Below, in pieces: positions 1 through 40,209 of a DNA stretch of 64,000 nt. Position numbers and translations under genes: made by a program. This stretch comes from Candidatus Poribacteria bacterium (GTDB lineage: Bacteria; Poribacteria; WGA-4E; PCPOR2b): positions 1,032,059 through 1,096,058 of the forward strand of contig OY762266.1 of the NCBI GenBank assembly GCA_963665285.1, given 5' to 3'. Below the pieces are notes generated by a model. That model saw only the letters and a list, made by a program, of their open reading frames with translations, had not been told where the DNA came from and did no database searches. Positions within the stretch are counted from its first letter, which is position 1. Every line of letters starts with the position of its first letter.

Positions 1-1478
1 ATGCCAGTACAGTCAACCTGGCATACCAGCTCTGGCGACAACCGCAAACCCCGCGTTACGACAAAATTGCACCGCGGGAGTATGATGAGTTTTTCTTTCA
101 ACCGCAAGATCGAGATCTGCTCTACGCCACCTACCTCTCCAAACCGGAAAACTTGGCGATCGATCAGATTCAACTCACCACCTCGTTTCATCGGCAAAAA
201 GAGGGGCGGAATGAACTCCTACGCGATTCAACGGAACGGCGCGAGCGGTTCGATACCGTCAACACAGTGGGACTCAGCGCACAGGCGGTCAATTCATCGC
301 TGCCGAATCAACGCGTCGTCGCAGGTGGTGAATTCTATTTTGATACTCTTTCGAGCGAAACAATCAAAACCAACATCAAGACCGGTGCTGAAAATGCAGA
401 CGACACAAAGGGCAGGTTCATCAACGGATCGCAATTCTGGGATGCTAATCTCTACATTCAGGACGAAATAGAATTGCACGAACGCCTCGAAATGACGCTT
501 GGTGGACGCTATACCCTTTACAACACAAACGCGGACCTGTCGGTGCGCTCCGATCAGTTTGATGACTTTAACCAATCCGGTAACGCATTGACCTACAGCG
601 CAGGGCTAGTTGCAAGCGTCACCGACGGATTAAACATCGTCGGTAATTTCGCCACATCGTTCCGCGCGCCTTCTTTGAACGATACAACTGCTGTTGAAGT
701 CACCAATGAAGGTATCGACTCCCCTTCACCAGATCTCAAATCGGAGAGAGGATGGACAGCAGAAGGAGGCTTTAAGGCACGCTATCCGTGGCTTATCGGT
801 TCACTGACCCTTTTTCATGGTCGCGTCAGCGATCTGGTCACCCGTGTACCCGTCGAAGATGCTTACAAAGACCAACCGCTGCCAGAACTGATTCAGGAAA
901 TCCAGCAAAGCAATCCGGGGGTTGATGTTTATGTATTCGATAATGTGGATGAAGTGCAGATCCAAGGCGTTGAACTGGCTGGAATGGTTCCGATTCCGAT
1001 TCAAAGCGGTTTGTCGCTCTACGGTAACGCGATGTTCACACGTGGAAAGGTACTGACCATCAACGGTGCAGCACCTGATCCCGATAAGCCGTGGGAAGAG
1101 CGGATTCGTCGTGAACCACCACTCAACGGCATGGTCGGTATTCGCTGGCAACCGCCTGCCCAACGATTCTGGGGAGAATTCTTCGTCCGTGCCGCAACCG
1201 GGCAGAGACGGTTAAATCGGAGCGATATTCGAGACCCACGGATTCCGGGAACCACTCGTGATACAGGTGAGGTCGAGTTTGATGCCAACGGCGCAGCGAT
1301 TGGTGAGGGTTCGCCGGGCTGGGTAACGCTTAACCTGCGTGGCGGTTTTCAGGTGACCCAATACAACCGACTCACCCTCGCCCTCGAAAATCTGCTTGAT
1401 AAGCGGTACCGTGAACACGGCTCCGGCATCAATGCGCCGGGATTCAACCTGATTGTCAGCCTTGACAACCAGTTTTGA
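1..1478 (+). CDS. TonB-dependent outer-membrane receptor, C-terminal beta-barrel portion (5' end lies outside the window)
   Basis: Frame 3 is open from the window edge; the protein ends ...NLIVSLDNQF with the terminal aromatic residue and beta-barrel strand periodicity typical of TonB-dependent receptors; the RYxEH-like motif (DKRYREHGSG) is near the C-terminus. Confidence 0.8.
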   Translation, partial: ASTVNLAYQLWRQPQTPRYDKIAPREYDEFFFQPQDRDLLYATYLSKPENLAIDQIQLTTSFHRQKEGRNELLRDSTERRERFDTVNTVGLSAQAVNSSLPNQRVVAGGEFYFDTLSSETIKTNIKTGAENADDTKGRFINGSQFWDANLYIQDEIELHERLEMTLGGRYTLYNTNADLSVRSDQFDDFNQSGNALTYSAGLVASVTDGLNIVGNFATSFRAPSLNDTTAVEVTNEGIDSPSPDLKSERGWTAEGGFKARYPWLIGSLTLFHGRVSDLVTRVPVEDAYKDQPLPELIQEIQQSNPGVDVYVFDNVDEVQIQGVELAGMVPIPIQSGLSLYGNAMFTRGKVLTINGAAPDPDKPWEERIRREPPLNGMVGIRWQPPAQRFWGEFFVRAATGQRRLNRSDIRDPRIPGTTRDTGEVEFDANGAAIGEGSPGWVTLNLRGGFQVTQYNRLTLALENLLDKRYREHGSGINAPGFNLIVSLDNQF

Positions 1479-1692
1479 TTGTCGGAGATTGAGAAGATTA
1501 ATTCGAGAAGTCGCGCACATATCCATCTGACCTTAATTACATTCCGGTCAAGGAGTATTACATATTCAGGTTATTACTTGAATATGTAGCAATCCCCCTC
1601 CTAGCCATTCTTTGCTTAACCGCCAAATCGCTTCACACCAAAATCTACAGAATGGACTCGGATGGGGCAATCAGACACGGCTCACGTTAAAT

Positions 1693-2239
1693 CATAGTAG
1701 ATTTTAGAATTATTGGGACACTCCCACTGCACAACCAACCCCCTAAATCCCCCTTATCAGGGGGACTTTGGAAAATTCGCACAGGTGGGTATTACCGGAA
1801 GGGTGAAGATAATCGGAAGGGGTATGTAATGGATATCGATGGTGAAAATCAGTAGAACCTGACCTGTCATCCCGTGATTGTCATGTTAAACGTATGGCGA
1901 GCTGCTAGTTGCAGCCATATTCGACCTTATCGAAGTTCGGTATGCGGTAAGCTCTGTAAATCAGCATATAGATTAGATTGAACCAGAACATGAAACCCAA
2001 CACTATAATAGTAGGTCAGGTGTCCTGTCTATAGCTATAGCAGGACGATATGCACAATCTGAGTTATAGTGAATCTTAGAATTAATGGCACATTCTAAAC
2101 CGGTGCGGTTAGGAAACCGAACCCACCGTTTACCCGTTTGGTAGGCACTGTTTCCAACTGTGCCTATGCGGTGCGGTTGGAAACCGCACCTACCGGGGGG
2201 TGAAAGTGTGTTTTTATTTTTAGAATTCACCATAAACGT
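1693..2239 (+). repeat. Composite or ancestral copy of a MITE-like repeat family (left part at 1693-1785, right-end-like motif TAGAATTCACCATAAA at 2222-2239) with ~430 bp of unique structured sequence in between
   Basis: Shares the core CCCCCTAAATCCCCCTTATCAGGGGGACTTTGGAAAAT with the copies at 5077-5239 and 40069-40209. Confidence 0.35.
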
Positions 2240-2488
2240 AGTGAAGTTCGGATTTTCTTGAAAAGCCGAATCCAAAGTGGTTCGGTATAATAGCAGAAAA
2301 GGCAACCAAAGTCACATAGGAAACGCTCCCAACGCCAATTGTTAGCAAATTCCTAGGTGACAATTGACTCGACACGCCTATCTCCGATTTCTCGTAGAGG
2401 GGGTGTTTTTTATCTGCCGCCCTTTCTGCTGCTAATTAGTATAATCGAATTACTAATAATTGTTAAGCAAATTCTAAAGGAGATTCAA

Positions 2489-2992
2489 ATGATGAAACCG
2501 TTACACATTGCTAAAATCCTATTTTTAATTACATTACTGATTTCGATTGGGTTGGTTGGTTGTGGTGAAGAATACGACGACGATGACCACGATAACAATG
2601 AATATGACGACGATAATGACGATGATGAGTATGACGATGATGACGACGATAGGCGTGCTGCCAATGCTCTCGGCGTCGTATTTGATAATCCCGTAGATGC
2701 TGGCAGACCAAGTCCCTCGTTTAACGCCGATATCCTGCCTATCCTTACGAACCGATGTGCCTTTGCAGGATGCCATGTCGCTGGAGGACCAGACGGTATA
2801 GATCTCCGCACATATAACGCCGTGATTGCCGGAGGAAGAGATGACGATACTGTCATTGCCGGCGATGCGAGAGAGAGTGAACTAGTTGAAGTAATTATTG
2901 AGGGCGAGATGCCACCTGGTGGTCCACCTTTGCCAGCAGCTCAGATCCAACTCATCATTGATTGGATCAATGAAGGTGCTAAGAACAACTGA
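2489..2992 (+). CDS. Lipoprotein with an acidic Asp/Glu-rich linker and one PSCyt1-like (Planctomycete cytochrome c-like) domain, CAFAGCH motif
   Basis: ATG at 2489 follows AAGGAG; lipobox LVGCG; IxPILxxRCxxxxCH...MPP...IxxWIxxGA pattern matches the PSCyt1 family; TGA stop. Confidence 0.7.
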   Translation: MMKPLHIAKILFLITLLISIGLVGCGEEYDDDDHDNNEYDDDNDDDEYDDDDDDRRAANALGVVFDNPVDAGRPSPSFNADILPILTNRCAFAGCHVAGGPDGIDLRTYNAVIAGGRDDDTVIAGDARESELVEVIIEGEMPPGGPPLPAAQIQLIIDWINEGAKNN

Positions 2993-3239
2993 ACCCGATC
3001 AAATATGTAGGAGTTACGCACTTCAGCTTGCAGTATCGCAATTCAGTGGACGGATGTAAGGACCGCAGATCTGCGGTCCCTACGAAATCGTGGATCCACG
3101 GTTTGGTAATGTTTGAGGGCAACCACAAGGGTTGTCCCTACGAGGCTTTGAACGTTCAGCCGCGTAAGTCCTAATATGTTTCGTTTTCGTAGATCTTTTA
3201 CAGATAGAGTGGAAAATAGTTAATTGGAGGAAATAACTG

Positions 3240-5075
3240 ATGTCCACGAAATTAAAGAAATATCTAAGTATTACAATATGTCTGTTTTTTACAGTGATAG
3301 GTTGCGCAATCAAACACCAAGGCTCTAATCGTTTGGATAAAAATGAGGAGGGCGAGTCCCATAACTCCTCGACCTCCGATGTTGGCTTGGATCCCTCTGG
3401 CGATGAAAATCTAAAGAAAACCGGTAATACAGAAGGTCTTGAAAAGGATGGATTGAAGCAGCATAACTTCGGTGAAAATGGAACGACCGACTCTAGTCTA
3501 AGTGGCTCTAGCAATGGGGTGGTGATTTACCCAACAGCCCAAAAGCCGAGTTCCAACGTGTATAGCCAGAGAGCGCAACATCGCGACGACGACGATGATG
3601 ACGACGACCATGATGACGACGACCATGACGATGACCATGATGATGACGACGACCATGACGATGATGATGACGACGACCACGACGATGACCATGATGATGA
3701 TGATGACGACGATGATGACGACGATTACCATTATGGTAATGTGTTATTTGATGATCCTACAGATGCCGGTAGATCCAGTCCCTCTTTTCAGGATGATATT
3801 TTACCTATCCTTACAAACCGATGTGCCTTCGCAGGGTGCCATGTCGCCGGGGGACCGTACGGTATAGATCTCCGTACCTATAACGCCGTGATGGCAGGAG
3901 GCCATGATGGTGCTATTGTCATTGCAGGCAATGCGCGAAGGAGCGAACTAGTCGAACAAATTGTTGAGGGCGAAATGCCTCCTAGCGGTCCACCTTTGCC
4001 GGCAGCTCAGATCCAACTCATCATTGATTGGATTAATGAGGGAGCCAAGAATAACTCAAATAATGAAACGAATGTGGTATCTGATAATCCTACAGATGCT
4101 GGTAGACCAATTCCCTCTTTTCAGGACGATATTTTACCTATCCTTACGAACCGATGTGCCTTCGCAGGGTGCCATGTCGCCGGAGGACCGGGCGGTATAG
4201 ATCTCCGTACGTATGATGCCGTGATTGCCGGAGGCAGTAAGGGTGCTATCGTTATTGCAGGCGATGCGGGAGAGAGCGAACTGGTCAAACAGATCGTTGA
4301 GGGTACAATGCCCCCTGGCGGTCCACCTTTGCCGGCAGCTCAGATCCAACTCATCACTGATTGGATTAATGAGGGAGCCAAGAACAACTTGGACGGTGAA
4401 ACAGATCGCGAGCCTCCGATTCCTCCAGATTCGTTCCCATCCCCGGACGTTAATCGGGATGGAGTCGTGAATATCCTAGATCTGATACAGGCTGCCTTTC
4501 AATTCGGACAAGTTGGCCCCCATCTCGCCGGAGATGTCAATGGCAACGGGACCGTGGATGTGGCCGATTTGATACTTATCAGCGTGGGTTTGAGCGGAAA
4601 TGCTGCAGCACCTGCGCCACCTGTTGACGATTCAAGTCTAACTACCAACTATCATCCATCAAGTGTCAAGCGTCAATTCCAAGCCCTTGCAGCTCTGGAA
4701 TCACTGGCAACCCCCTCACGTGAGGTACATCTTGCCCGCGATATGCTCAAAGCGTGGTTAGCCCGCGTGAAGCTGTTGGTCACGGAAACGAAATTGCTGC
4801 CAAACTATCCCAACCCGTTCAATCCTGAAACGTGGATACCCTACCAGCTAGCAGAGACTGCCTATGTAAAAATTCACATTTATGATGTCGTTGGGAATCT
4901 GGTGAGGACGTTAGATCTGGGCACCAAACCTGTGGGCAATTATATGTCACGGGAACAAGCAGCATATTGGGATGGCCGCAATGACATGGGGGAAGGGGTC
5001 AGCAGTGGGGTGTATTTCTACACGCTGACGACAGGGGATTATCAGACAACGCGCCGGATGATCGTTGCGCGATAA
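3240..5075 (+). CDS. Secreted lipoprotein: ~60-residue poly-Asp/His tract, two PSCyt1-like domains (CX4CH), dockerin-like pair of Ca-binding loops, C-terminal T9SS sorting domain
   Basis: GGAGG RBS; lipobox VIGCA; DVNRDGVVNILDL and DVNGNGTVDVADL segments; C-terminus LLPNYPNPFNPETWIPY...GVYFYTL (Por_Secre_tail-type CTD). Confidence 0.8.
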   Translation: MSTKLKKYLSITICLFFTVIGCAIKHQGSNRLDKNEEGESHNSSTSDVGLDPSGDENLKKTGNTEGLEKDGLKQHNFGENGTTDSSLSGSSNGVVIYPTAQKPSSNVYSQRAQHRDDDDDDDDHDDDDHDDDHDDDDDHDDDDDDDHDDDHDDDDDDDDDDDYHYGNVLFDDPTDAGRSSPSFQDDILPILTNRCAFAGCHVAGGPYGIDLRTYNAVMAGGHDGAIVIAGNARRSELVEQIVEGEMPPSGPPLPAAQIQLIIDWINEGAKNNSNNETNVVSDNPTDAGRPIPSFQDDILPILTNRCAFAGCHVAGGPGGIDLRTYDAVIAGGSKGAIVIAGDAGESELVKQIVEGTMPPGGPPLPAAQIQLITDWINEGAKNNLDGETDREPPIPPDSFPSPDVNRDGVVNILDLIQAAFQFGQVGPHLAGDVNGNGTVDVADLILISVGLSGNAAAPAPPVDDSSLTTNYHPSSVKRQFQALAALESLATPSREVHLARDMLKAWLARVKLLVTETKLLPNYPNPFNPETWIPYQLAETAYVKIHIYDVVGNLVRTLDLGTKPVGNYMSREQAAYWDGRNDMGEGVSSGVYFYTLTTGDYQTTRRMIVAR

Positions 5076-5076
5076 A

Positions 5077-5239
5077 TTATGGTGAGTTAGACAAATAAGT
5101 GGACATTTGCCAAAGTCCCCTCTTTCCCCCTAATAAGGGCGCTAGGGGGTTACGGATTTAGGCGGTTGTTTGTAGGTACAGATTGCCTAATCTGTACATG
5201 GGCATTGGCAGTGTGTAAGTAATTCTAAAATCCACCATA
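5077..5239 (-). repeat. MITE-like non-coding repeat, copy 2 (inverted relative to the 40069-40209 copy); abuts the stop codon of the upstream gene
   Basis: About 150 bp with near-identity to 40069-40209, including the palindrome GTACAGATTAGGCAATCTGTAC and the CCCCCTAAATCC...GGGGGACTTTGG core; terminal ATGGTG / CACCAT ends. Confidence 0.5.
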
Positions 5240-5432
5240 GTTTTACTGTAGGAGGGATTTCCAAATCCCGACAGCCCACGGTAGGGGCGATCTCCCGGTT
5301 GCAACTTTTCAAGCAAAATGGTTAAAAAGCCGAAAACTGAAGAGCCCTGTGTATTTCTTCGACTACCGTTGGCTATTTGCCTACGATGTGCTATAATTGA
5401 AGACACATTTAACCATTGTGAGGACTAAATTC

Positions 5433-7451
5433 ATGGTCAAATCCACCTGCACAATCTGTCTACATCTTCTAGCTTTTGGGATCGCAAGTTGCCTTTGTGC
5501 TTCAGCACAAGATGACACAGAACCTGTTGAACTCGACGAAATTGTGGTGACACCCGGCAGGTTCGCGATTGATGATGGGACACCCTCAAAGTTATCACTC
5601 TCAAAGCAACGGATTGAGCAGTTTCCGTTGGTTGATAACGATGTGATGCGGGCTGCACATATTTTTCCGGGGGTCGTTGCGAGCGATTACAGCGCACGAT
5701 TCAGCGTTCGCGGGGGCGAAAAGGACGACATTTTGGTCAGATTAGACGGGATGGAACTCTTCGATCCGTACCACCTACAAGATTGGGGAGGCGCTGTTTC
5801 GCTCGTTGGACTCGATTTAATCCAGCGTGTCGAATTGCTGATGGGTGGCTTCCCAGCGGAGTACGGGGATAAAATGTCCGGTGTGTTTGATATCGCCACG
5901 AAAGAGGAGAAGATTGAGAAGGTTTCTGCTAATTTCGGGCTTGACCTTATCAATACAACCGCAATGGTGGAGGGCCCCCTATCAGAAAAAGGGTCATGGC
6001 GCCTGTCAGCACGCCGGGGTTACGTTGACCTGATCCTTGCCATGATTGATTTCGATGAAGACTACAAACCACAATATGCTGATGTATACGGCAAGCTGAC
6101 CTACGCACCGACACAGAAGGATACGCTCACACTCAATGGATTATATGGCTGGGATAAGAACCGGATTCGGCAAGGGGACCCCGACAATAACTTAGATTCG
6201 CGCTATGATAATTTAACCGTTTGGACGCGGTGGCGGCATCACTTCGGCACAGCGAACTGGTCTGATGTGTTTGTTTTTGGAGGGACCGCAGCGCATGATC
6301 GTCAGACCGGAGCGGCGAATTCTGATGTGCGTTCGTTCCATTTCTTCGGCACCAAAACGGAATTCACCGCCGGTTTTCTGGATAAACATCTGTTTCGTAG
6401 CGGAATCGAATGGCGTTGGACCGCAGCGCAGTACGATTACGACGTCCGAGAACGGCAGCCCGGAATAGATCAGTACACACGAATCCTTGCAGATTTTGAA
6501 GACAATGGAGGCGAAATCAAGGCGTTTCTTCAAGATGAGTGGCAGCTACATCCGAAACTCGCGCTCAATGTGGGAGGACGGTACGTGCTGCAGAACTATC
6601 GCGCCGCCGGTATCCAAAGCTATGAAATTGGACCTCGGATTGCACTTGCGGTGCGGCCAATAGAGAAACTGGTGTTGCGTGGGGCGTGGGGAATCTATCA
6701 CCAACCCATTTCTATGATGAATATTCCTGTGGAGGATAACGTTCAGACCGCTGGACGTGCTGAACAGGCGGTTCATTACATTCTCGGCGGTGAATACCAT
6801 CCACACGCTAATTTCTTGTTCCGTTTGGAGGCGTACTACAAGACACTGGACAATCTTTCAGGGCGGCTCAGGGAGTTCGGACGACAGACCCAGATTTTCG
6901 CACCTCCGGAATATGGAGAGGCAAAAGGGATGGATGTTTTTGCGACGCATGCAGTTTCAGATCGGCTAACGTGGGGAGTCGGCTATGCATACACCATTGC
7001 GAAAGAGAGTGCAGGCGGTGAGACATTTTTTCGTCAGTCCGACCGACGGCATTCACTCGCGCTCAGTAGCAGCCATCAACTTTCACGGGGGTGGCATCTC
7101 TATCTTACTTGGCGTTTCCATACCGGCGAACCGAGAACGCCGTTGACGCATACGCTGGTTTCGCTTCCGGGAGGTGGCAGCGTGTGTGACCGACAGTTTG
7201 GGGAGACGCATTCAGAGCGGCTACCACCTTATCACAGTCTCGATTTCCGGTTTACGAAACGGAATCCATATAGCCGGTGGGAACTCACATGGTATTTTCA
7301 AATCTTAAATCTCTACAATCGTACTAACCTTGACCAATACGCGTTCAGCGAGAATCGAGACGAGGAAACGGGCGCGCTGCTCGGGTGTGAGATTGATGAA
7401 GAACCGATGCTGCCGATCCTGCCGACACTGGGTATTTCGGTCACTTTTTAA
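5433..7451 (+). CDS. TonB-dependent receptor (plug plus beta-barrel)
   Basis: Signal peptide MVKSTCTICLHLLAFGIASCLCASAQ; plug motif DEIVVT; C-terminal ...LGISVTF; GAGG RBS upstream of the 5433 ATG. Confidence 0.85.
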   Translation: MVKSTCTICLHLLAFGIASCLCASAQDDTEPVELDEIVVTPGRFAIDDGTPSKLSLSKQRIEQFPLVDNDVMRAAHIFPGVVASDYSARFSVRGGEKDDILVRLDGMELFDPYHLQDWGGAVSLVGLDLIQRVELLMGGFPAEYGDKMSGVFDIATKEEKIEKVSANFGLDLINTTAMVEGPLSEKGSWRLSARRGYVDLILAMIDFDEDYKPQYADVYGKLTYAPTQKDTLTLNGLYGWDKNRIRQGDPDNNLDSRYDNLTVWTRWRHHFGTANWSDVFVFGGTAAHDRQTGAANSDVRSFHFFGTKTEFTAGFLDKHLFRSGIEWRWTAAQYDYDVRERQPGIDQYTRILADFEDNGGEIKAFLQDEWQLHPKLALNVGGRYVLQNYRAAGIQSYEIGPRIALAVRPIEKLVLRGAWGIYHQPISMMNIPVEDNVQTAGRAEQAVHYILGGEYHPHANFLFRLEAYYKTLDNLSGRLREFGRQTQIFAPPEYGEAKGMDVFATHAVSDRLTWGVGYAYTIAKESAGGETFFRQSDRRHSLALSSSHQLSRGWHLYLTWRFHTGEPRTPLTHTLVSLPGGGSVCDRQFGETHSERLPPYHSLDFRFTKRNPYSRWELTWYFQILNLYNRTNLDQYAFSENRDEETGALLGCEIDEEPMLPILPTLGISVTF

Positions 7452-7510
7452 GAGAGTAGCAGTACGTCTTGATTGGGCAACAAGTGCAAGAAGATAGGAA
7501 AGATTTGTTC

Positions 7511-8473
7511 ATGAAACGAAAATTAGTTTGGAAAATGTTGCTGATAGGGAGCAGTCTGTTGACACTAAACGCTTGGGGCAATAAGACGATTTCCTTCACC
7601 GCTGATCTGACGGGAAACCTCGACATCTACATCATGGATATCAATCGCAAGAATCCCGTCAACCTAACCAACCATCCGGCGGAGGACTCTTCCGCGACAT
7701 GGTCACCAGATGGCAGCGCTTTCGCTTACGTTTCACACAGGGATGGTAATCCAGAGATTTACGTGATGGAGATGAAGAACAAGGAATCTCGGCGGCTGAC
7801 GAACAACCGGGCAACTGACATCGATCCCGCTTGGTCGCCCGATGGACGCTGGATTGCCTTTGCATCTAACCATCACAGGGAACACGCGGCAGATACCGAC
7901 ATCTACATAATGAACCCAAACGGAAAGAAGGTTCAACAACTCACAAACAAGGGTGGACACAATTCAACACCGGCGTGGTCGCCGGATGGGCAGAGTATCG
8001 CATTCCGCACTACACTCGATGGTATCGGGGCGATCCATCTGATGAACGCAGACGGCAAAAAACAGCGCGCCCTCACGCAGGTATCCGCGACAAACCCCAC
8101 GTGGGCAGCCAGCGGCAAAGAGATCTACTTCTCTAGCGATATGTTCGACAATGTAAAGATGCCTACCCTGTTTGCCATAGATGTTAACGGGGGAAATGTC
8201 CGGAAGTTAGCAAACGCCGCCCAAGCCTGCGAGCAACCTGCCGAATCGCCCAATGGACAATGGATCGCCTATGTGTCAACTCAGGGCAATAACAAAGACA
8301 TCCATCTACTCGGTGTGGCAGATGGGGGGATCCAACAATTGACACAAGATCCAGGACAGGAATTTTCTCCTGCATGGGTGCCGTTAGGGTTCTCTGTTTC
8401 ACCAAACGCACACATGCGGACAACGCTCTGGGGAACCTTGAAGCAAACAGGTTTACAGTCAATCCACCGCTAA
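7511..8473 (+). CDS. TolB-like periplasmic beta-propeller protein (PD40/WD40-like repeats)
   Basis: Signal peptide, then repeated ...WSPDGxxIAFxS...DIYxM... blades typical of the TolB C-terminal propeller. Confidence 0.7.
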   Translation: MKRKLVWKMLLIGSSLLTLNAWGNKTISFTADLTGNLDIYIMDINRKNPVNLTNHPAEDSSATWSPDGSAFAYVSHRDGNPEIYVMEMKNKESRRLTNNRATDIDPAWSPDGRWIAFASNHHREHAADTDIYIMNPNGKKVQQLTNKGGHNSTPAWSPDGQSIAFRTTLDGIGAIHLMNADGKKQRALTQVSATNPTWAASGKEIYFSSDMFDNVKMPTLFAIDVNGGNVRKLANAAQACEQPAESPNGQWIAYVSTQGNNKDIHLLGVADGGIQQLTQDPGQEFSPAWVPLGFSVSPNAHMRTTLWGTLKQTGLQSIHR

Positions 8474-8559: not shown

Positions 8560-9975
8560 TTTACCAATCTTGCGTGCAATGCCCCATCCCTTTAGGGTGG
8601 GGCTGTAGCCCGCCCAAGTGCGTTGTTAGTCAAAAAACGGTTGAAATTGCAGGAAAAGATGCTACAGTTACCTTGGCTTTCGTGAGAGGGCGCAACTTCC
8701 CTGCTTAGTGGTGTCTCTCACCTCCAATTGCGTGGACATGAACTCCAGATAGCCGAGTCCCTATGAAAACCTACAAGTTCAAAATGTATAGCAACCACAA
8801 TAATCGTGAGTTGCAAAAAACGATTGACAGCCATGCTCACGTGTGGAATCACTTTGTGGCGTTGTGTCGCCGATACTATGCTATCTACGGGACATATCCG
8901 GGTAAGAAAGCACTGATGCGCCACTTAACCAAGTTGAAGCGGCTTCCCCGCTTTGCCCATTGGAATCAGTTGCCGAGTCAATCGTTGCAAGACGTGATAG
9001 ACCGACTTGATAAAGCGTACTCTAAACTGTTTACTGACAGCAAAAGCGGCAAACGTTCGGGTCGTCCCCGTTTCAAGAGACGTAAACTATACAAGTCCTA
9101 CACGCTCAAGCAAGCCGGTTGGAAACTGCTACAAGACAACTATATCCGTATCGGCAAACGGATATACCGGTATTTCAAAAGTCGGGAAGTCTTAGGCACG
9201 CCGAGACGCTGCACGATTAAGCGCGACAGCGTAGGAGACGTATGGCTAATCATTCTGACAGACCATGTAGATACCGATTTAGAGTCGCCCACGACGGGTA
9301 ATAACGCGGGGTTTGACTTTGGACTAAAGAGGTATCTCACCGGGTCTGACTTCAATGACTACGACTCTCCACAATTCTTCAAGCGCGGTCTCAACGCTAT
9401 CAAACGCGCAAACCGCAACCACTCACGAAAGGTTAAAGGTTCAAACAACCGTGAACGTGCGAGACTCAATGTTGCAAGGAAACACCGGCGTATTGCCAAT
9501 CAAAGAGCCGACTTCCATTGGCAGCTAGCGCATGAGCTAACAGACCGGTATGATTGGATTTCACTGGAGACCCTCAACATTAAGGGCCTGAAGTCCCTTT
9601 GGGGTCGTAAGGTCTCTGATTTGGGGTTCTATGACTTCGTACAGAAACTGAAGTATATTGACTCTAAGAAACAGCATCGTGAAGTCCGATTCATTGATAA
9701 GTGGTATCCATCAAGCCGAACCTGTCACGGCTGCGGCATAGTTAATCAAGACCTGAACCTTCGTGATAGAACATGGCAGTGTCCAAGCTGCCACACACAG
9801 TTGGATAGAGACCGCAATGCGGCACTCAATATCCATAGGGTGGGGGCATCCACCCTCTCAGAAGAGGTCGTAAGTCCCAGTTCACCGGGCTAACTTCGTT
9901 GATAGAGCAATTCGACGCCTTAAAGGGAACGGGTGAGAATACCCACCCTTTAGGGTGTGGGAGTATGTCAATCCC
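8560..9975 (+). mobile_element. IS200/IS605-family insertion sequence of the tnpB-only (IS1341-like) type; boundaries approximate
   Basis: TnpB ORF flanked by similar subterminal hairpins sharing the core CCCTTTAGGG (8581-8603 and 9943-9961); no tnpA present. Confidence 0.5.
8763..9893 (+). CDS. tnpB: TnpB (IS605 OrfB family RNA-guided endonuclease-like protein)
   Basis: C-terminal RuvC-II (SLETLNIKG), zinc finger CHGCG...CPSCH and RuvC-III DRDRNAALNI motifs; 376 aa. Confidence 0.9.
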   Translation: MKTYKFKMYSNHNNRELQKTIDSHAHVWNHFVALCRRYYAIYGTYPGKKALMRHLTKLKRLPRFAHWNQLPSQSLQDVIDRLDKAYSKLFTDSKSGKRSGRPRFKRRKLYKSYTLKQAGWKLLQDNYIRIGKRIYRYFKSREVLGTPRRCTIKRDSVGDVWLIILTDHVDTDLESPTTGNNAGFDFGLKRYLTGSDFNDYDSPQFFKRGLNAIKRANRNHSRKVKGSNNRERARLNVARKHRRIANQRADFHWQLAHELTDRYDWISLETLNIKGLKSLWGRKVSDLGFYDFVQKLKYIDSKKQHREVRFIDKWYPSSRTCHGCGIVNQDLNLRDRTWQCPSCHTQLDRDRNAALNIHRVGASTLSEEVVSPSSPG

Positions 9976-16941: not shown

Positions 16942-17766
16942 CTAAATTATAATATCTAAGCTGTGGGTGTAGAGTTCGATGTCCAACCGTGCCGCCAATC
17001 CAACAGCGTTGGGATCAACAAACGGAGATATGAAGAATTTTCGATTTACGGCTACATTTTCCGTCTGCTCAAAGAATGCTACTTTTCTTTGAAAAAGGGA
17101 AAGGTCACTGCGGCTGACTGATGACTTAATTTCAATTGCAATCACTGAAGCGTTCCGGATGATTACATCCATCTCTATCTGTTCCGGATGTCCGAAAACC
17201 GATCCGGAATCGTCATAACCCTCGTACCGTTCCACCCGGAAACCGAGTTCATCCGTCAAAATTGCAGCAAGCCCATTGCGGAATGCCTCTTCAGACTGCA
17301 ATCCCCATCGCGCGCCAAGCCCTTGAATAGTATGGTTGAATCGCCTTATGGCATCATTTGTATATGCACGTGACGCGCTGGACTCTTCGCGTAGGGCCTT
17401 TATCTCCTGCCGGAATTCAACCCACCGCTGCTCGGACTCCTCACGTAGCCGATTGGACTCCTCGCGTAGGATTTGCATCTCCTGCCGGAACTCAACCCAC
17501 CGCTGCTCGGACTCCTCACGTAGGACTTGCATCTCCTGCCGGAACTCAACCCGCTGTCGTTCAGATTCCTCACGCATCTGCTTGAGCTCATTCAAAATCG
17601 CTGTTATATCTTCTTTTTTGGCAAAAGTCTCCGACATAACACCAATCAACTCATAACGAATCTCTGCATTTTGGGTTATTAGGCGCGGAAATTCATTAGC
17701 GATTAATTCGCGAATTTCTTCTTCAGTTAATGATATGTTTCTTTCATCCGTCATATCTGTACTCAC
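16942..17766 (-). CDS. DUF3782-family protein: coiled-coil with three ~20-aa tandem repeats (SEQRWVEFRQEMQ) and a C-terminal nuclease-like domain
   Basis: The repeat architecture and LGARWGLQSEEAFRNGLAAIL segment resemble DUF3782 proteins; D...EMDVIIRN...AIEIK suggests a PD-(D/E)XK-like fold. Confidence 0.55.
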   Translation of the reverse strand: MSTDMTDERNISLTEEEIRELIANEFPRLITQNAEIRYELIGVMSETFAKKEDITAILNELKQMREESERQRVEFRQEMQVLREESEQRWVEFRQEMQILREESNRLREESEQRWVEFRQEIKALREESSASRAYTNDAIRRFNHTIQGLGARWGLQSEEAFRNGLAAILTDELGFRVERYEGYDDSGSVFGHPEQIEMDVIIRNASVIAIEIKSSVSRSDLSLFQRKVAFFEQTENVAVNRKFFISPFVDPNAVGLAARLDIELYTHSLDIII

Positions 17767-17775
17767 TGAATTTGC

Positions 17776-19308
17776 TCAAACCGGCAATGTGATAATAAAC
17801 GTTGCACCTGGAGTTTCTGCCACATTAACCTCAATGGTGCCGCCGTGCTCCTCAACAATTTGCTGGCTAATCGCTAGCCCTAGCCCTGTCCCTTTCTGTT
17901 TCGTTGTGTAAAAAGGATCGAACAAACGCGAAGCGACATCCGGCGGTATGCCACGTCCGGTATCCTTGATATAAATTTGAACCACCTGAATCAGGGGATT
18001 ATAGGCGGTTTCAATCGTCAAGACGCCCCCGTCGTCCATCGACTCAATTGCATTCCGAAATAGGTTCAACAACACCTGCGTCATTCCGTCATCGTTCACG
18101 GCAACCGATGGACAATCGTCAGCAAGACGTTTCTCAATCCGTATATTGTCCCGATCCAACTCCGGCTGACAAATCGAGAGGCTATTCTCGATTAAGTCAT
18201 TAATGGCATTCGGCTTAACGCCGGCGGTACGTGGGTTGCCCGACACAAGTAGCTGCTCAACCACACGATTCAGCCGATCCACCTCTTTGATAATGACCTG
18301 AATATACTCTTGAATCTCTGAATTCGATTCGCCCTCAAGTTGGAGCAACTGCGCCGCACCGCGGATCCCACCAAGGGGGTTTCTCACCTCGTGCGCCACC
18401 GTCGTCGCAAGTTTACCCAGTGCTGCGAGCCTTTCGGATTGAACCAGCGAGTCGATCATCTGCTGAATTTTAACGCGCTGTGCCACAATCGCAGCGATAA
18501 TTGTCAAGATACGGATATCGTCCTCAATCGAAAATTCGTCCGACGCTTTATCGATTGTTAGTGTACCGACGACTTTTTCATCAACAATCACGGGGACGCA
18601 CCAGAACGCTATTGAATCTTTAGACTGCACCAATTTCGCATCTGGAAACTCAATCTGCTGAAGGGGCGTGCGACTGTGTGGCACACCAATCGGGTGACCG
18701 GATTGCAGCACCTGTTGTTGGATAATATCGATTTGGCTGTCCGTTCCGCGTCGGAGTTCCGCCTCTGTCAACCCAAAAACTGCCTCCACCTTTTTAACCA
18801 ACTCGCCATCTTCCCAAATTCTCAGTGCACCCCGGTATACCCCCACCTGATTAGCAAGCGTTTTGATAATCTTTTGGAACAGCTCGTCCAATTCTACAGC
18901 GGTATTTGCTGTATCACCAATATCAAAAAGGGTGGATAGATCCCGCACCCGTTTTTCAAGGTCTGTGTTGACTTGATCTATCTGCTGAAGCTGCGTTTCA
19001 GTGGTGGCGCGTTGCGCTTTGAAAAGCTGGATAGTGCGAACGATAAAATACGCGATAATAGGATATAAGATCGCAACCACACCCAAATGGATTTGCTCAT
19101 AGTAGATCCCAGCGTGTATCCAATTGGCGAGTGTCGTGCACGCAAGCAGCAGATACTGTCCGCGACGGTTGTCGTATATCCCCGCGAGGATTATAACCCC
19201 GTAGTAAAGATGCGAGACAACGCCGTAGCTCTCCGGGCTATGCAAGCCGTAAACAAACAGGTTAATCAGTAGGACGACGAATATCAGGAAGAAAGTTAGC
19301 ATGAGCAA
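17776..19308 (-). CDS. Sensor histidine kinase (transmembrane N-terminus, GAF, HisKA, HATPase_c)
   Basis: H-box VAHEVRNPLGGIRG; G2 box GTGLGLAISQQIVEEHGG. Confidence 0.85.
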   Translation of the reverse strand: MLMLTFFLIFVVLLINLFVYGLHSPESYGVVSHLYYGVIILAGIYDNRRGQYLLLACTTLANWIHAGIYYEQIHLGVVAILYPIIAYFIVRTIQLFKAQRATTETQLQQIDQVNTDLEKRVRDLSTLFDIGDTANTAVELDELFQKIIKTLANQVGVYRGALRIWEDGELVKKVEAVFGLTEAELRRGTDSQIDIIQQQVLQSGHPIGVPHSRTPLQQIEFPDAKLVQSKDSIAFWCVPVIVDEKVVGTLTIDKASDEFSIEDDIRILTIIAAIVAQRVKIQQMIDSLVQSERLAALGKLATTVAHEVRNPLGGIRGAAQLLQLEGESNSEIQEYIQVIIKEVDRLNRVVEQLLVSGNPRTAGVKPNAINDLIENSLSICQPELDRDNIRIEKRLADDCPSVAVNDDGMTQVLLNLFRNAIESMDDGGVLTIETAYNPLIQVVQIYIKDTGRGIPPDVASRLFDPFYTTKQKGTGLGLAISQQIVEEHGGTIEVNVAETPGATFIITLPV

Positions 19309-19374
19309 TTCACGGTTTCAAAAATTACTTCCAATGCAGAACCGAGGAATCAGAAGTCTGAATCGCAAAGAATT

Positions 19375-19983
19375 TTACTGTCCATTCCGCAAGAAATTAT
19401 CAAGCATCTTGAGTCCTATCCGACCGCTCTTCTCCAAATGGAACTGCGTCGCAATCAGGTTCTGATGGGCGACGACACTGGAAAACTCAACGCCATAAGT
19501 GGTCTTGCCGACTATGTACGAATCGTCTTGCGGTATCGGGTAGTACGAGTTGACAAAATAGAAATGGGCGGGATTCGGCACATCGCGAAAAATTGGATGT
19601 GCCTGTGTCTGATACACCTCATTCCAGCCAATCTGTGGCACTTTTTGGGTTGACGTCGCCTCATACTTTTTAACAACGCCGGGCAAGATGCCGAGACAAT
19701 CGGTATCCTCCTCCTCGCTATGCTCAAATAGAATCTGTATACCGATACAGATACCCAACATGGACTTACCCGACTCGTAAACCTCCCACAATATCTCCGC
19801 AAGCCCAGCCGCGTTCAGATTATCCATCGTTGCCCGCGCTGCCCCCACGCCGGGGAAGACAACTTTCTCTGACTCCAAAATGGTCTGGGGGTCGGCGGTA
19901 ATTTCTGCGTCGTAGCCTAAGTATTTGACGGCGCGTTCGACACTCGTCAGGTTGCCCGCACCGTAGTCAATAATTGCAATCAT
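19375..19983 (-). CDS. hisH: Imidazole glycerol phosphate synthase glutamine amidotransferase subunit HisH
   Basis: MIAIIDYGAGNL...PGVG...FHLEKS class I GATase signature; 202 aa. Confidence 0.85.
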   Translation of the reverse strand: MIAIIDYGAGNLTSVERAVKYLGYDAEITADPQTILESEKVVFPGVGAARATMDNLNAAGLAEILWEVYESGKSMLGICIGIQILFEHSEEEDTDCLGILPGVVKKYEATSTQKVPQIGWNEVYQTQAHPIFRDVPNPAHFYFVNSYYPIPQDDSYIVGKTTYGVEFSSVVAHQNLIATQFHLEKSGRIGLKMLDNFLRNGQ

Positions 19984-20096
19984 TGGAGACTCAAGTTGAT
20001 AAAAGATTCGTTTGGAAAACTAAAAAGGGACCGTTGAAATGATGTTGCAGGGTGAAAATTTCGATCTGTGAGAACAGGTTCGAGACGTTCATCTGC

Positions 20097-21029
20097 TCAA
20101 ATGCTATTTGGACTTGACTCAAAAAGTTCTATCTGTTTGGAAGTCGCTGCGGTTCTCGATTTAGTCCGTCCCCAAATGGCTTCCAAGTCCTGCGTGCATT
20201 TATAGTCATTGAATAAGTCTGAAACATCATCCGCTGTTCTTTTCTCAGCAAGTCTTTCTTCGATGATTTCAACATTGATCTTATCGAGTTCAATGCCAAT
20301 CGATTCCCGTCCTAACTGCTCCGCAACGACCAACGTCGTCCCTGAACCTGCAAATGGATCTAATACAACATCGCCGGGATTTGTCGAAGAAAGGATTATC
20401 CGAAGGAGTAATTGAATCGGTGCCTGCTGCTTGTGCAAGCGATTTCCCTCCGCGTCCCGCAAGGCTTCATCTCCAGCAAAATAGCCCGATGTCAACTCAC
20501 GAATATCGTCCCACACATCGGTGACAAACATACCGTTTTCCCGTTCATATTTGTAGCCCGCAGGGAGCGGCGGATTGATTCGCAAGCGGTGAAAGACCCG
20601 TGGACGCTCCCCTTTTGTTGCAAACGCAATGATCTGGTAGTGCTTACCAAAGCGATTCATTCCGGGCACGGCGGACGTTTTCTTTTTCCAAATAATAAGA
20701 TTTTGAAATGTCCACCCAGATTGGCGTAGACACCGTAACACAGACTCAGTTTTCTTTTCACGCTGCATGAAATAGATTGCACCACCCGAAGCAGTTTGGT
20801 CGAAAATCTTCGTGCACACATCCCCCATCCACTTCCAATATTGCGCTTCAGGCAAATTATCATCCCACTCGTTGTAGCCTTTATCTTGATTAAAGGGTGG
20901 ATCGAGAAAGGTGAGATCAATATGCCCGAAAGTGGTGTTCTGTTGATCTAATAGCGAAGTGCAATCTCCATGTAGCACAGCTGCTTTTATTTTATTTTTT
21001 GTTCGCATAGATTCTGTGTTATTTGGCAT
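20097..21029 (-). CDS. DNA methyltransferase, beta-class N4-cytosine/N6-adenine (DPPF then FAGSGTT)
   Basis: Motif IV LDPPFN precedes motif I DPFAGSGTT; N4/N6 MTase family. Confidence 0.8.
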   Translation of the reverse strand: MPNNTESMRTKNKIKAAVLHGDCTSLLDQQNTTFGHIDLTFLDPPFNQDKGYNEWDDNLPEAQYWKWMGDVCTKIFDQTASGGAIYFMQREKKTESVLRCLRQSGWTFQNLIIWKKKTSAVPGMNRFGKHYQIIAFATKGERPRVFHRLRINPPLPAGYKYERENGMFVTDVWDDIRELTSGYFAGDEALRDAEGNRLHKQQAPIQLLLRIILSSTNPGDVVLDPFAGSGTTLVVAEQLGRESIGIELDKINVEIIEERLAEKRTADDVSDLFNDYKCTQDLEAIWGRTKSRTAATSKQIELFESSPNSI

Positions 21030-21243
21030 ATTCTTCTTCGCGGAGTTCGGCAATAGCTTGGGTGGCATACTTTACAACTGTTTCCTCACTTACGCCCTTA
21101 TTTTTCTCATGCACCCGGTCCATGACCGCTAACACCTTTTGAAATGCTCTACCCCTTACCAATCTCTTCTGAATCGTCGCTTGCCCGTTTCTCATAATTT
21201 TCATAATACCGTAGTCAATAATCTTGGCCATGTTATATCCCAT
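21019..21243 (-). CDS. Small hypothetical protein between the endonuclease and the methyltransferase (possible controller or accessory protein)
   Basis: Its start overlaps the stop of the upstream ORF; no recognisable motif. Confidence 0.3.
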   Translation of the reverse strand: MGYNMAKIIDYGIMKIMRNGQATIQKRLVRGRAFQKVLAVMDRVHEKNKGVSEETVVKYATQAIAELREEEYAK

Positions 21244-22325
21244 TACGCGAAAAAACCATCATTGATCATAATGCGAAAACCATTGATTTCAGCTTCCTGC
21301 TTTAGATTCGTAAGACGATTTTTCCCTGAACGGCTAATCGAATTAAGACTGAAACCCTCACCCGTCGTCAGCTTCAAAATTGGCACAGGATTGTAATTTG
21401 TCTCATCAATGTTCAGATGCTCCAAGTTCGTAAATAGTATCATCTTCACCAAACCATCCTTTATGTCACCGAGAGAGGGAAGTTCAGCTTTGTTCGTATG
21501 CTTCGCCTCAATCAGATGGATTTCCTCCCCATGGATCTCAACCTCATCACAGGTTAAATAGTAATTGCCACCAAGATAATTTTTGATGGTTAGCTTTCCT
21601 TTGATCCCCGTTACGAGCTCTTTGGGCTGTGTAGTGACACTTTCCCTTGCCTGTGCCTGCCTTGCCAAATCCCTTGATAGTGCCTTAAATTCTGCTTGAC
21701 CTTCACGAAGTATGCCGATTCGACGTTCCGCAGATTCCCAAGAGTGCATTTCCACGCTTAATTTTTCGGATATAGTCGAATAGGCATTCAACGCCTGCGA
21801 GCCAATTTCGCCGATACCTTCGACTTGCGTCATGTTCCAGTGCAAGGCATCGGACTGATAAGACATCAAGCGATCAATTTCGCTGATGATGTGCTCTGAA
21901 TTAAACTTTTGACCCGTGATTTTATGTGTGTATCTTGTGCTTTTTGAAGCATCAACATAGTAGCCAATTATCACGTAAACACCCAACAGACTCATTAAAG
22001 AGATTGTATCCCATTGGAGAAAGTCTCGATCGCCCTGTTTACCCTCATCCTTCAAAATTGGAATTATCGTCGCTTTTTTGCCAGAAAAACTCAGGGTATC
22101 ATAGACTCTTGAATACGGGTAAGACCGTGTCCTTTTTGGTGAAACCCAGCAGCTTAAAGCAATCTGCTTGTTTGGATCAATCTGTAAAATAAAAGTTGCT
22201 TTGTCTGAAAGCGTTGCGTCAAAATCTTTATAACTGAAAGATTTAAGTTTGCTGCATAGAAGTGGGGTATATTTTACTCCAGTGATCCTAGCGAAAATAT
22301 CCATCGGGTTCTCGTTACACCTCAA
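21243..22325 (-). CDS. Putative Type II restriction endonuclease
   Basis: Flanked by two methyltransferases on the same strand; candidate PD-(D/E)XK core CDEVEIHGEEIHLIEAKHT. Confidence 0.5.
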   Translation of the reverse strand: MRCNENPMDIFARITGVKYTPLLCSKLKSFSYKDFDATLSDKATFILQIDPNKQIALSCWVSPKRTRSYPYSRVYDTLSFSGKKATIIPILKDEGKQGDRDFLQWDTISLMSLLGVYVIIGYYVDASKSTRYTHKITGQKFNSEHIISEIDRLMSYQSDALHWNMTQVEGIGEIGSQALNAYSTISEKLSVEMHSWESAERRIGILREGQAEFKALSRDLARQAQARESVTTQPKELVTGIKGKLTIKNYLGGNYYLTCDEVEIHGEEIHLIEAKHTNKAELPSLGDIKDGLVKMILFTNLEHLNIDETNYNPVPILKLTTGEGFSLNSISRSGKNRLTNLKQEAEINGFRIMINDGFFA

Positions 22326-22331
22326 ACAAGA

Positions 22332-23189
22332 TTAAAACAACTCCCCTTGATCAACAATTGGACGCAGTTGACCGACCGAATAATCTATATATTTTTGCTG
22401 CGTCTCAATTCCGATATGCGCTCTGCCCAATTTTTCTGCGGCACAATTTGTTTGCCCACTTCCAGCAAAAATGTCAATCACCACATCTCCCCTATAAGAA
22501 TAAAACTGAATGACCCGTTCCGCAAGTTCCAACGGAAATGGACACGGATGCAGATTCTCTTGTGGGGCTACTGGACGGATTTTCCAGACGTTTTTGCTCT
22601 TCTCGCCTTGGTAATCCTTCAGGTCAATTTCATTTTGGGTTTTCTCTTTAACACTTCTATTCCAATAAATGTTGTTCTGATTTTTCTTATCGGCAGGCTT
22701 TTGAAAGACAAATACATATTCGGCAACCAAACTTGGATAGTAATATCCGGGATAGGGATGCTGTAACAAGACACCTGACCGTCTATCCCTCGCAACGGGC
22801 TTTTCCCAGATAATATCCTCCTTGAATTGCCATCCAATATCTTCAAGCCAACTGACAAAATGAAATGGGAGTGCAGTGCGTGTGCCGTTCCATAAGACCG
22901 GGGCAATATTTACCACATTGTGTCCCCCCGGCTGAGTGATTCTCAATAACGCCTTGAATCGATTAACTAGAAAAAGCCGATATTCCTCGTAGGATATATC
23001 TTCTCGCTCCCATCTCGCTTTGGTGCCGTGTAGCTTTTCAATATGCTCCTCGTAATTGATTGCGTTTAGGTAAGGAGGCGAGGTGAAACCAAGCATAAAA
23101 TGGTTGTCAGGAAAATTATCCATAACCGAGAGACAATCCCCTTTGATAATCCGCCCATTACCAATTTTGATTTCTTCTAAGGCTGCCAT
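22332..23189 (-). CDS. DNA methyltransferase, beta-class with SPPY motif (likely N4-cytosine- or N6-adenine-specific)
   Basis: FTSPPY motif IV and DIFAGSGQT motif I; start MAALEE at 23189 chosen so that it does not overlap ribH. Confidence 0.8.
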   Translation of the reverse strand: MAALEEIKIGNGRIIKGDCLSVMDNFPDNHFMLGFTSPPYLNAINYEEHIEKLHGTKARWEREDISYEEYRLFLVNRFKALLRITQPGGHNVVNIAPVLWNGTRTALPFHFVSWLEDIGWQFKEDIIWEKPVARDRRSGVLLQHPYPGYYYPSLVAEYVFVFQKPADKKNQNNIYWNRSVKEKTQNEIDLKDYQGEKSKNVWKIRPVAPQENLHPCPFPLELAERVIQFYSYRGDVVIDIFAGSGQTNCAAEKLGRAHIGIETQQKYIDYSVGQLRPIVDQGELF

Positions 23190-23214
23190 AAGCTTAAAGT
23201 GTCTATCAGTTGGT

Positions 23215-23685
23215 CTATCCGTCAATCTGCCGATACAGATTCGCCATCTCAATCGCCGTGACCGCCGCCTCTGCCCCTTTATTCCCCGCCTTGGTGCCAG
23301 CACGTTCAATCGCCTGCTCAATCGTATCAGTCGTGATAACGCCGTAAATCACAGGGATCCCCGTGTTCAAAGAGACCTGTGCGATCCCTTTCGCGCTTTC
23401 GTTGGCGACATAGTCAAAGTGCGGGGTCGCACCGCGAATCACTGCACCGATACAGATGATCGCATCGTATCGCCCTTTTTCGGCGAGCCGTTTTGCCGTA
23501 GTGGGAATCTCGAACGAACCGGGCGTCCAGCAGATGTCCACATCGTCCTCGTCCACACCGTGGCGCTTGAGTGCGTCAAGAGCCCCATCCAACAATTTAG
23601 TGGTAATAAAGCTATTAAATCGACTGATCACGATCCCGATCTTCAGATCAGTGCCGATAAGATTGCCTTCGTAGATATTTGGCAT
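23215..23685 (-). CDS. ribH: 6,7-dimethyl-8-ribityllumazine synthase
   Basis: 156 aa; IGIVISRFN...GAVIRGAT...HFDYV signature. Confidence 0.9.
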
Positions 23686-40068: not shown

Positions 40069-40209
40069 TATGGTAGATTATAGAATTACTTAGACACTGC
40101 CGATGCAGATGTACAGATTAGGCAATCTGTACCCACAAACAACCCCCTAAATCCCCCTTGTCAGGGGGACTTTGGAAAATGTCCACTTATTTGTCTAATT
40201 CACCATAAA
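40069..40209 (+). repeat. MITE-like non-coding repeat, copy 3, inserted immediately upstream of the start of lipoprotein paralog B
   Basis: Interrupts the otherwise conserved 5' leader shared with paralog A (compare 38170-38246 with 40010-40068). Confidence 0.5.

Follow-up and report, generated by a model that had tools for sequence, protein, structure and literature searches.

What would a bacterium of the phylum Poribacteria gain by placing a predicted c-type cytochrome next to a long run of aspartates? The question is raised by a 64,000-nt stretch of Candidatus Poribacteria bacterium (GCA_963665285.1, contig OY762266.1, positions 1,032,059-1,096,058, forward strand), hereafter the window, the first 8.5 kb of which hold five genes on the + strand: a TonB-dependent receptor (TBDR_A), the two lipoprotein genes B and C, a second receptor (TBDR_D) and the gene of a PD40 beta-propeller protein.The original prediction for this locus had read B and C as PSCyt1-like surface lipoproteins that, together with the receptors, form an uptake system for metal or haem. 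The gene positions it gave were all confirmed, and the closest matches to the window proteins are Candidatus Poribacteria proteins. As we set out below, B and C are most likely exported, lipid-anchored c-type cytochromes of a PSCyt1/FoxE-like fold, with one haem domain in B and two in C, and the pairing of this domain with Asp/His tracts across the phylum suggests an undescribed device for redox metal handling.

The three haem-domain copies are ~108 amino acids (aa) long and 81-84% identical to one another, copies 2 and 3 in protein C being a 333-nt tandem duplication (3738-4389). Both proteins pass the gathering threshold of PSCyt1 (PF07635, 22 bits), B with 24.4 and C with 56.1 bits. When the family profile was compared with all PDB sequences, the sole match at E <= 10 was FoxE (E 4.5e-7), in an alignment spanning CH...MPP...W..GA, and an exhaustive profile search returned 15,316 representative relatives at E <= 1e-3, among which those with a CXXCH motif also match Cytochrom_C, Cytochrome_CBB3 and PccH. 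A structure prediction based on a shallow 18-sequence alignment was discarded at a predicted local distance difference test score (pLDDT) of 63; the AlphaFold model obtained from a 42-sequence alignment has a pLDDT of 89.3 and a predicted template modelling score of 0.84. It displays a cytochrome c fold. The proximal His after the second Cys and the distal Met towards the C-terminus, as in class I-type cytochromes, are conserved: in the 18-sequence family alignment C32, C37, H38, M83 and P84 are invariant. The profile search and the structure prediction, proposed as checks along with the original assignment, thus both bear it out: PSCyt1 scores, a cytochrome fold is found, and the Cys/Cys/His/Met set is conserved.

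Both proteins begin with a signal peptidase II lipoprotein pattern ([LVI][ASTVI][GAS]C, read from the sequence; ...ISIGLVGC in B, ...FFTVIGC in C), the Cys of which is kept in homologues. Orthologues of B are 130-180 aa long. Protein C is modular, its lipobox being followed by a polar disordered region, a poly-Asp/His tract, the two haem domains, a dockerin and a C-terminal domain (CTD) of the kind used by the type IX secretion system (T9SS).

All three domain copies carry CAFAGCH, a CX4CH motif, and none has the canonical CXXCH of PSCyt1. The motif is real, and homologues keep both of its Cys residues and its His as well as the distal Met: it occurs in the form CA-x-x-[G/E/K]-CH in 117 of 120 close homologues and in nearly all Poribacteria copies parsed over 77 loci, where the few without it look like mis-parsed or truncated open reading frames (ORFs). 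In the best 150 of the 15,316 relatives, for which the motifs were counted, there are 259 CXXCH, 68 CX4CH and 2 CX3CH domain copies, and CXXCH and CX4CH copies often share one polypeptide. Because the two forms mix in the same proteins, the motif is not special to this locus but a widespread insertion variant. The alignment places the additional two residues as an insertion (CA-x-[S/T/A]-G-CH versus C-x-x-CH), with the distal Met of CX4CH copies opposite the MP(P) of CXXCH relatives. To judge from this alignment, CX4CH is shown to be equivalent to CXXCH at the level of the family, and it very probably binds haem; as a covalent haem motif it is accepted, though rare (PMC6469936, PMC11492766). 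A routine and interchangeable CX4CH variant in PSCyt1/FoxE-like proteins matters for haem-motif genome annotation, which normally counts CXXCH alone.

The second unusual feature is the acidic tract. In B, it comprises 28 residues of mixed D/E/Y/N/H composition directly after the lipidated Cys, and in C it consists of Asp and His. Such tracts had been predicted to reach ~60 residues and to precede each haem domain; they are indeed real and tied to the domain, but the longest run here is 47 residues, and only two of the three copies are preceded by a tract, copy 3 following copy 2 directly. Nor is this order general, as across Poribacteria ORFs the tract usually stands after the haem domain. A census of Poribacteria DNA (1.59 Mb; 1,347 non-nested ORFs, each 100 aa or longer) found a tract in 60 of 117 haem-domain ORFs versus 6 of 1,230 others, five of these six being orthologues of protein C. 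Of the 60 tracts, 46 follow the last haem domain on its C-terminal side, 8 (those of the window clade) are N-terminal and 6 separate one domain from another. Tract length ranges from 20 to more than 150 residues; C-terminal tails reach 67 consecutive Asp in the 340-aa di-haem lipoproteins of locus L058 (L-numbers denote fetched Poribacteria loci), and in a ~155-aa subfamily a ...FPNLRY stretch leads into terminal (D/H) or (HD)n tails. To our knowledge, these are among the longest poly-aspartate runs in bacterial proteins. Among the best 150 library relatives, tracts are confined to CX4CH-type proteins. The tracts are therefore not a product of chance, being nearly confined to the haem-domain family in this DNA, and their coupling to the domain is phylum-wide and independent of position. 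We also considered the tract as a lipoprotein export signal of the Bacteroidetes type or as a mere tether, and rejected this as a general explanation on account of the 46 C-terminal cases; since tract position varies, its role cannot be only that of an export signal (PMC5080379) or a tether.

It seemed conceivable that the tracts are functionally neutral, low-complexity sequence having expanded through slippage of GAY/CAY triplets where a disordered region tolerates it. This would fit a trinucleotide array whose length and composition differ widely between homologues that are still ~84% identical, and which some paralogues lack entirely. We nevertheless consider such an origin very unlikely, given the near-exclusivity to one family, the different positions in different clades and the retention of tracts across lineages whose haem domains are just ~45-60% identical. 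Furthermore, GAT and GAC are interleaved, with same-codon runs of at most 5 in the census and a longest run of 4 in the tract of C, a pattern that speaks for selection acting on the amino acid and against recent slippage as the sole cause.

In some genomes the C orthologue has a tract and no haem domain (L014 10360-12537, L038 10645-12354 and L013 10408-11844), with immunoglobulin (Ig)/FN3-type modules instead; in L014 the tract is enlarged to 153 D/H residues. As these orthologues keep it, the tract is the constant feature of the C family. A further class of paralogous cytochrome lipoproteins has a conserved GHDHVHGDEGDDF linker (L004 9513-10931, L005 9223-10955, L031 9159-11057) and forms tandem arrays directly after a proteasome/Pup-ligase operon; a Cu/Zn superoxide dismutase lipoprotein adjoins in 10 loci.

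What could a haem and a tract achieve together? We infer, with a probability of roughly 40%, that the tract concentrates a metal cation beside the haem and that the haem changes the oxidation state of this metal, most likely iron. The haem would be attached covalently through CX4CH, with the motif His and the Met of the invariant MPP as axial ligands, and the tract, combining Asp with His, Tyr or Glu, would provide a high-capacity site for hard or borderline metal cations next to this one-electron centre, so that both would work in the cell envelope as a module for redox-coupled metal handling. The substrate would most probably be iron, with Fe(II) being bound and then oxidised, as in FoxE and MamP, or Fe(III) being captured and then reduced. 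Iron is favoured because D, H, Y and E are classic Fe(III) ligands, because the nearest structural relatives, FoxE, PccH and MtoD, belong to iron or extracellular electron transfer, and because of the flanking receptors. Thermodynamically, a His/Met haem would by our own reasoning favour Fe(II) oxidation. In the window clade, where the module stands between two receptors, one of them nearest to haem/transferrin-type receptors, it may serve uptake, through a contact that we can only propose. A related reading, which we regard as rather unlikely, takes the Poribacteria-specific class of CX4CH cytochromes with giant poly-Asp/His tracts as a device for redox-coupled metal capture or mineralisation; here, Fe or another metal would collect on the tract and have its oxidation state shifted by the haem, for TonB-dependent uptake, detoxification or storage.

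Table 1. Positions of genes, domains and non-coding features in the first 8.5 kb of the window.
Feature	Position	Strand	Remarks
TBDR_A, 3' part	1..1478	+	C-terminal 491 aa of a ~770-aa protein; PF00593, E 6e-40
Conserved non-coding element directly upstream of B	2271..2491	+	TATAAT 2286-2291; 35-nt invariant core 2319-2353
Gene B, small lipoprotein, predicted mono-haem cytochrome, 167 aa	2489..2992	+	PSCyt1 above gathering score
Lipobox LVGC of B, lipidated Cys25	2552..2563	+	sequence reading; G-C-G lipobox kept in homologues
Acidic tract of B (EEYDDDDHDNNEYDDDNDDDEYDDDDDD)	2567..2650	+	length differs among close homologues
Haem domain copy 1 (in B)	2669..2992	+	CX4CH 2756-2776; distal Met-Pro-Pro 2909-2917
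Gene C, modular lipoprotein, 611 aa	3240..5075	+	lipobox VIGC; PSCyt1 match in two stretches
Poly-Asp/His tract of C, 47 residues (41 D, 6 H)	3585..3725	+	imperfect GAY/CAY trinucleotide array
Haem domain copy 2 (in C)	3735..4061	+	CX4CH 3822-3842; MPP 3975-3983
Haem domain copy 3 (in C), used for the structure model	4062..4385	+	CX4CH 4155-4175; MPP 4308-4316
Dockerin type I module of C	4446..4592	+	PF00404 31.9 bits vs 22.9 on segment 4386-4700, two stretches
T9SS type A/FlgD_ig-like C-terminal sorting domain of C	4794..5072	+	TIGR04183 31.5 vs 23; PF18962 27.4 vs 27
Sigma-70-type promoter of TBDR_D, TTGGCT-17-TATAAT	5369..5397	+	conserved in 8 orthologous loci
TBDR_D, 672 aa	5433..7451	+	Plug (PF07715) and barrel (PF00593)
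Secreted PD40 beta-propeller protein, 320 aa	7511..8473	+	PF07676, E 1e-47; 60 nt downstream of TBDR_D

The receptors bear on this proposal only as far as their association with the cytochromes goes. We mapped the window proteins onto 77 Poribacteria loci, counting a TBDR within 3 kb as adjacent, and found one at ~14 of the 77 haem-domain loci. The order TBDR_A-B-C(-like)-TBDR_D recurs in 11 fetched loci, 10 of them distinct (L009 overlaps L001), and in four deeper lineages TBDR_D (69-76% identical) is flanked by 1-3 haem-domain genes; TBDR_D itself is at least 67% identical across Poribacteria. Reciprocally, none of three sampled TBDR_D homologues at 68-74% identity has a cytochrome neighbour. 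The link is thus recurrent yet clade-specific. The original prediction was right to expect an association that recurs in many genomes, but the lipoproteins are not always adjacent to receptors: six context look-ups, the 77-locus map and the reciprocal look-ups contradict a family-wide rule, and co-occurrence is obligate in neither direction. As to the receptors themselves, a full-length TBDR_A orthologue (L001:6823-9135) has Plug and barrel, and its best NCBIfam model is the haem/haemoglobin/transferrin receptor TIGR01786, matched end-to-end with 193.6 bits against a cut-off of 323.75. TBDR_D reaches no NCBIfam subfamily, the haem/haemoglobin/transferrin models (TIGR01786/TIGR01785) scoring just 29.7 bits. 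We did not retain TBDR_A as a confirmed haem receptor, given the score below cut-off and a window sequence in which no His stands between the FRAP-like motif and the PDLK motif.

In the model put forward originally, B and C would be surface-exposed lipoproteins that capture a substrate for the flanking receptors in the manner of SusD, TbpB, HpuA or HmuY, the tract or the cytochrome-like domain binding metal or haem. The recurrent gene order and the deeper lineages just described speak for it, as do the likeness of TBDR_A to haem/transferrin receptors, the T9SS-type CTD of protein C and the acidic residues right after the lipidated Cys, which resemble the Bacteroidetes lipoprotein export signal (PMC5080379). 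We consider it improbable, however: adjacency is not obligate either way, the invariant Cys-Cys-His-Met set would indicate a covalent cofactor haem rather than a transferable one, and the tract is C-terminal in most members, hence not an export signal, while in some paralogues the Cys is not followed by acidic residues at all (for example CGSAIKEL).

Protein C differs from B in its tail. Its dockerin and CTD both score above threshold, as predicted, and only C, not B, has a T9SS type A sorting domain. Together they form a ~220-aa cassette (4386-5072) that is 42-46% identical to the tails of three unrelated large window proteins, so that the cassette is a generic export tail of this organism, placing C in the exported proteome and saying nothing specific on uptake. 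The three proteins (tails at 31768-32394, 34024-34653 and 37515-38141) contain cadherin/Ig, Ig-like and WD40 modules and are large, exported, eukaryote-like proteins typical of sponge symbionts. SprA/Sov, PorK-N and PorU/V were not seen among the scanned window genes (ORFs up to ~40.7 kb). The cassette could also mean that C donates or accepts electrons outside the cell, held in an assembly that is dockerin-based or on the cell surface, and serves secreted redox enzymes or extracellular acceptors, as do the X183 cytochrome domains of Teredinibacter carbohydrate-active proteins or PccH; relatives in which Ig, FN3 or cadherin modules accompany the haem domain would agree with this. Yet a gene for a lytic polysaccharide monooxygenase or another redox enzyme is absent from the cluster, the small B-type lipoproteins have no cassette, and the poly-Asp tracts would be left unexplained, which makes this role quite improbable.

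Several observations weigh against redox-coupled metal handling. Haem and metal binding by these proteins are predicted from sequence, and a poly-Asp tract in seawater would be mostly occupied by Ca2+ and Mg2+. The odds ratio of ~215 between tract and haem domain counts homologous genes, not independent events, and is hence no true probability; about half of the haem-domain ORFs have no tract. Most paralogues lie away from receptors, in tandem arrays of 2-5 genes, and TBDR_D homologues without cytochrome neighbours have been described above. The TBDR_A orthologue stays below the cut-off of every substrate-specific model, and a Fur box, an iron regulator and TonB/ExbBD genes were not found in the cluster. 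Finally, a cytochrome with His/Met ligation might just as well serve as a plain electron carrier.

This last point deserves weight. B and C could be ordinary membrane-tethered periplasmic electron carriers, like the lipoprotein cytochromes c that feed terminal oxidases, expanded into paralogues; the tract would then dock or steer a basic redox partner electrostatically, comparable to the acidic hinge protein of the bc1 complex, or act as a solubilising spacer, and the receptor neighbours would be a historical accident of one clade. The class-I-like fold with His/Met ligands, the many paralogues per genome in unrelated contexts, the tract-less half of the copies, the separate spacers and promoters of B, C and D, and the TBDR_D homologues that occur without cytochromes are all consistent with this main alternative, which is possible, though on balance doubtful. 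On the other hand, Asp/His tails of 50-150 residues, (HD)n repeats and the conserved GHDHVHGDE linker exceed known docking tracts and resemble metal-binding sequences, the export cassette of C is common to extracellular-type proteins, unlike what a purely periplasmic carrier would have, and oxidase or bc1 genes were not found beside any array.

The array sites recur: in 20 loci they are near DUF4159/VWA genes, in 19 they follow the proteasome/Pup-ligase operon and precede PPDK, and in 10 they adjoin a Cu/Zn superoxide dismutase lipoprotein; Bat-like genes are neighbours as well. The proteasome/Pup operon, PPDK, heptosyltransferase, DUF4159/VWA and Cu/Zn superoxide dismutase were considered as functional clues; all recur, but they form no coherent pathway.

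Upstream of B lies a non-coding element of ~200 nt that is nearly invariant over 8 loci (nhmmer E-values 1e-41 to 1e-48), these being 7 distinct genomes on account of the overlap of L009 with L001; its 35-nt core is identical in all of them, with flanking proteins only 80-90% identical. It has an RNA fold z-score of -2.55 and a consensus fold with a 12-bp closing stem (GCAGAAAAGGC/GCCUUUUCUGC), two hairpins and 2 compensatory pairs. Rfam gave no match for the element (1479-3300 at E <= 10) and none that was meaningful in the whole window at gathering thresholds, and a metagenome scan gave no further copies of the core. In L014, the same element precedes an inserted gene for an 803-aa lipoprotein that has no Pfam match. 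We regard the element, which sets in just behind the TATAAT, as a candidate riboswitch-like structured 5' leader or operator. The start codons of B and D are backed by ribosome-binding sites, that of D also by its promoter, all conserved in eight orthologous loci. Since long spacers (250-1000 nt) separate B, C and D, and a conserved promoter precedes D and probably also B, a single operon is not shown. The long spacers around B and C are filled with GC-rich palindromes, for example GGACCGCAGATCTGCGGTCC at about 3063-3082, and a palindrome resembling repetitive extragenic palindromic sequences, CCCCCTTATCAGGGGG, recurs intergenically (1749-1765, 5125-5141, 40153-40169), with 5 matches versus 0.11 expected.

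Downstream of TBDR_D, the PD40 protein had been labelled TolB-like. It is a PD40 propeller only: the TolB model TIGR02800 gave 198 bits against a cut-off of 343 and matched with only the propeller part of the profile, the N-terminal domain of TolB being absent. Its synteny with the cluster is limited to the close clade, where in most of the 11 loci (exceptions L015, L036 and L038) TBDR_D is followed by the PD40 gene and, in antisense orientation, a PhyH gene. PhyH was set aside as a functional clue, PhyH genes being numerous in Poribacteria, with three in the window alone (PMC5087111). Between the PD40 and PhyH genes, which are adjacent in the syntenic L001, the window has a solo IS200/IS605-type TnpB (OrfB) gene at 8763-9893. 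The PD40 propeller (7511-8473) weakly matches the NCBIfam model of hydrazine synthase alpha (E 1.3e-9), and the top Foldseek match of the haem domain model (4062-4385) is the haem domain of the same protein (5c2v_A, probability 0.99, E 0.03); both are probably resemblances at the level of domains only.

The sampled TBDR_D homologues of L085-L087 (8001-10058 plus flanks) adjoin genes for a squalene-hopene-cyclase/prenyltransferase-like protein and a GT2 glycosyltransferase, followed by a rhodanese gene in L085 and L087 and a CoaE-like gene in L086, a context unlike that of the window. Further along the window, two N6/N4 DNA methylase genes (20097-21068 and 22332-23321) flank an unannotated 360-aa ORF (21243-22325), and a DUF3782/PD-(D/E)XK nuclease gene lies at 16942-17766; the stretch 16942-23321 may be a restriction-modification or defence islet. 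Neither tRNA nor tmRNA genes were detected in the window by ARAGORN.

Poribacteria live in sponges as abundant, uncultivated symbionts with a little-known envelope biology. Multi-copy haem proteins fused to poly-Asp runs point to a specific, selected envelope chemistry in them, be it metal capture, redox processing or mineral contact. While the fold, the lipoprotein anchoring and CX4CH are already known, we have not found described a phylum-wide family that joins CX4CH class-I-like cytochromes with very long poly-Asp/His tracts, and a literature search on poly-aspartate cytochromes and PSCyt1 function yielded nothing relevant. If a metal device, the family would give a major group of sponge symbionts a way of handling metals that has not been described before; if concerned with iron redox chemistry, it would extend the few known bacterial iron oxidase/reductase modules, such as FoxE, Cyc2 and the magnetochromes, by a new architecture, and would link such chemistry to TonB-dependent uptake. 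Being small and, but for their lipid anchor, soluble, the proteins allow a direct in vitro test of the hypothesis.

How does this family compare with known systems? The one solved structure that the sequence profile found is that of FoxE from Rhodobacter ferrooxidans SW2 (PDB 5MAB), a di-haem Fe(II) oxidoreductase with which the family has the CH...MPP...W..GA layout and His/Met ligation in common (PMC10654088). FoxE, however, is a soluble di-haem protein of the periplasm; its motifs are CXXCH, and foxEYZ also codes for a PQQ (pyrroloquinoline quinone) protein and a membrane transporter, whereas the Poribacteria proteins are predicted lipoproteins with single, independently repeated domains, CX4CH and poly-Asp/His, at an identity of 24%. 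foxY and foxZ are not nearby, the neighbours in the cluster being TBDRs, a PD40 propeller and PhyH, and the relation is homology at the domain level only. MamP likewise combines a small c-type cytochrome domain, the magnetochrome, with an acidic iron-binding surface, oxidises Fe(II) and holds Fe(III); it differs in its unrelated fold, in an acidic site that is a folded 'crucible' within a PDZ dimer and not a disordered poly-Asp tract, and in its magnetosome setting. The PSCyt1 threshold is passed here, and close CXXCH relatives score strongly, but the consensus of that family has CXXCH where we find CA-x-x-G-CH, and its typical members are large multidomain planctomycete proteins, while most Poribacteria members are lipoproteins of 130-180 aa. 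The same rare CX4CH spacing is found in haem 3 of hydrazine dehydrogenase and in cytochromes c3 (PMC6469936, PMC11492766); these are multihaem proteins of unrelated folds with mostly bis-His ligation, in contrast to the class-I-like mono-haem domain with distal Met seen here. Finally, in pairs of a TBDR and a surface lipoprotein such as SusC/SusD, TbpA/TbpB, HmuR/HmuY and BtuB/BtuG, the receptor gene likewise adjoins lipoprotein genes, and the acidic residues after the lipidated Cys are reminiscent of the Bacteroidetes export signal (PMC5080379). The Poribacteria lipoproteins have no homology to lipoproteins of the SusD, TbpB, HmuY or BtuG type, and their adjacency to receptors is clade-specific and not reciprocal.

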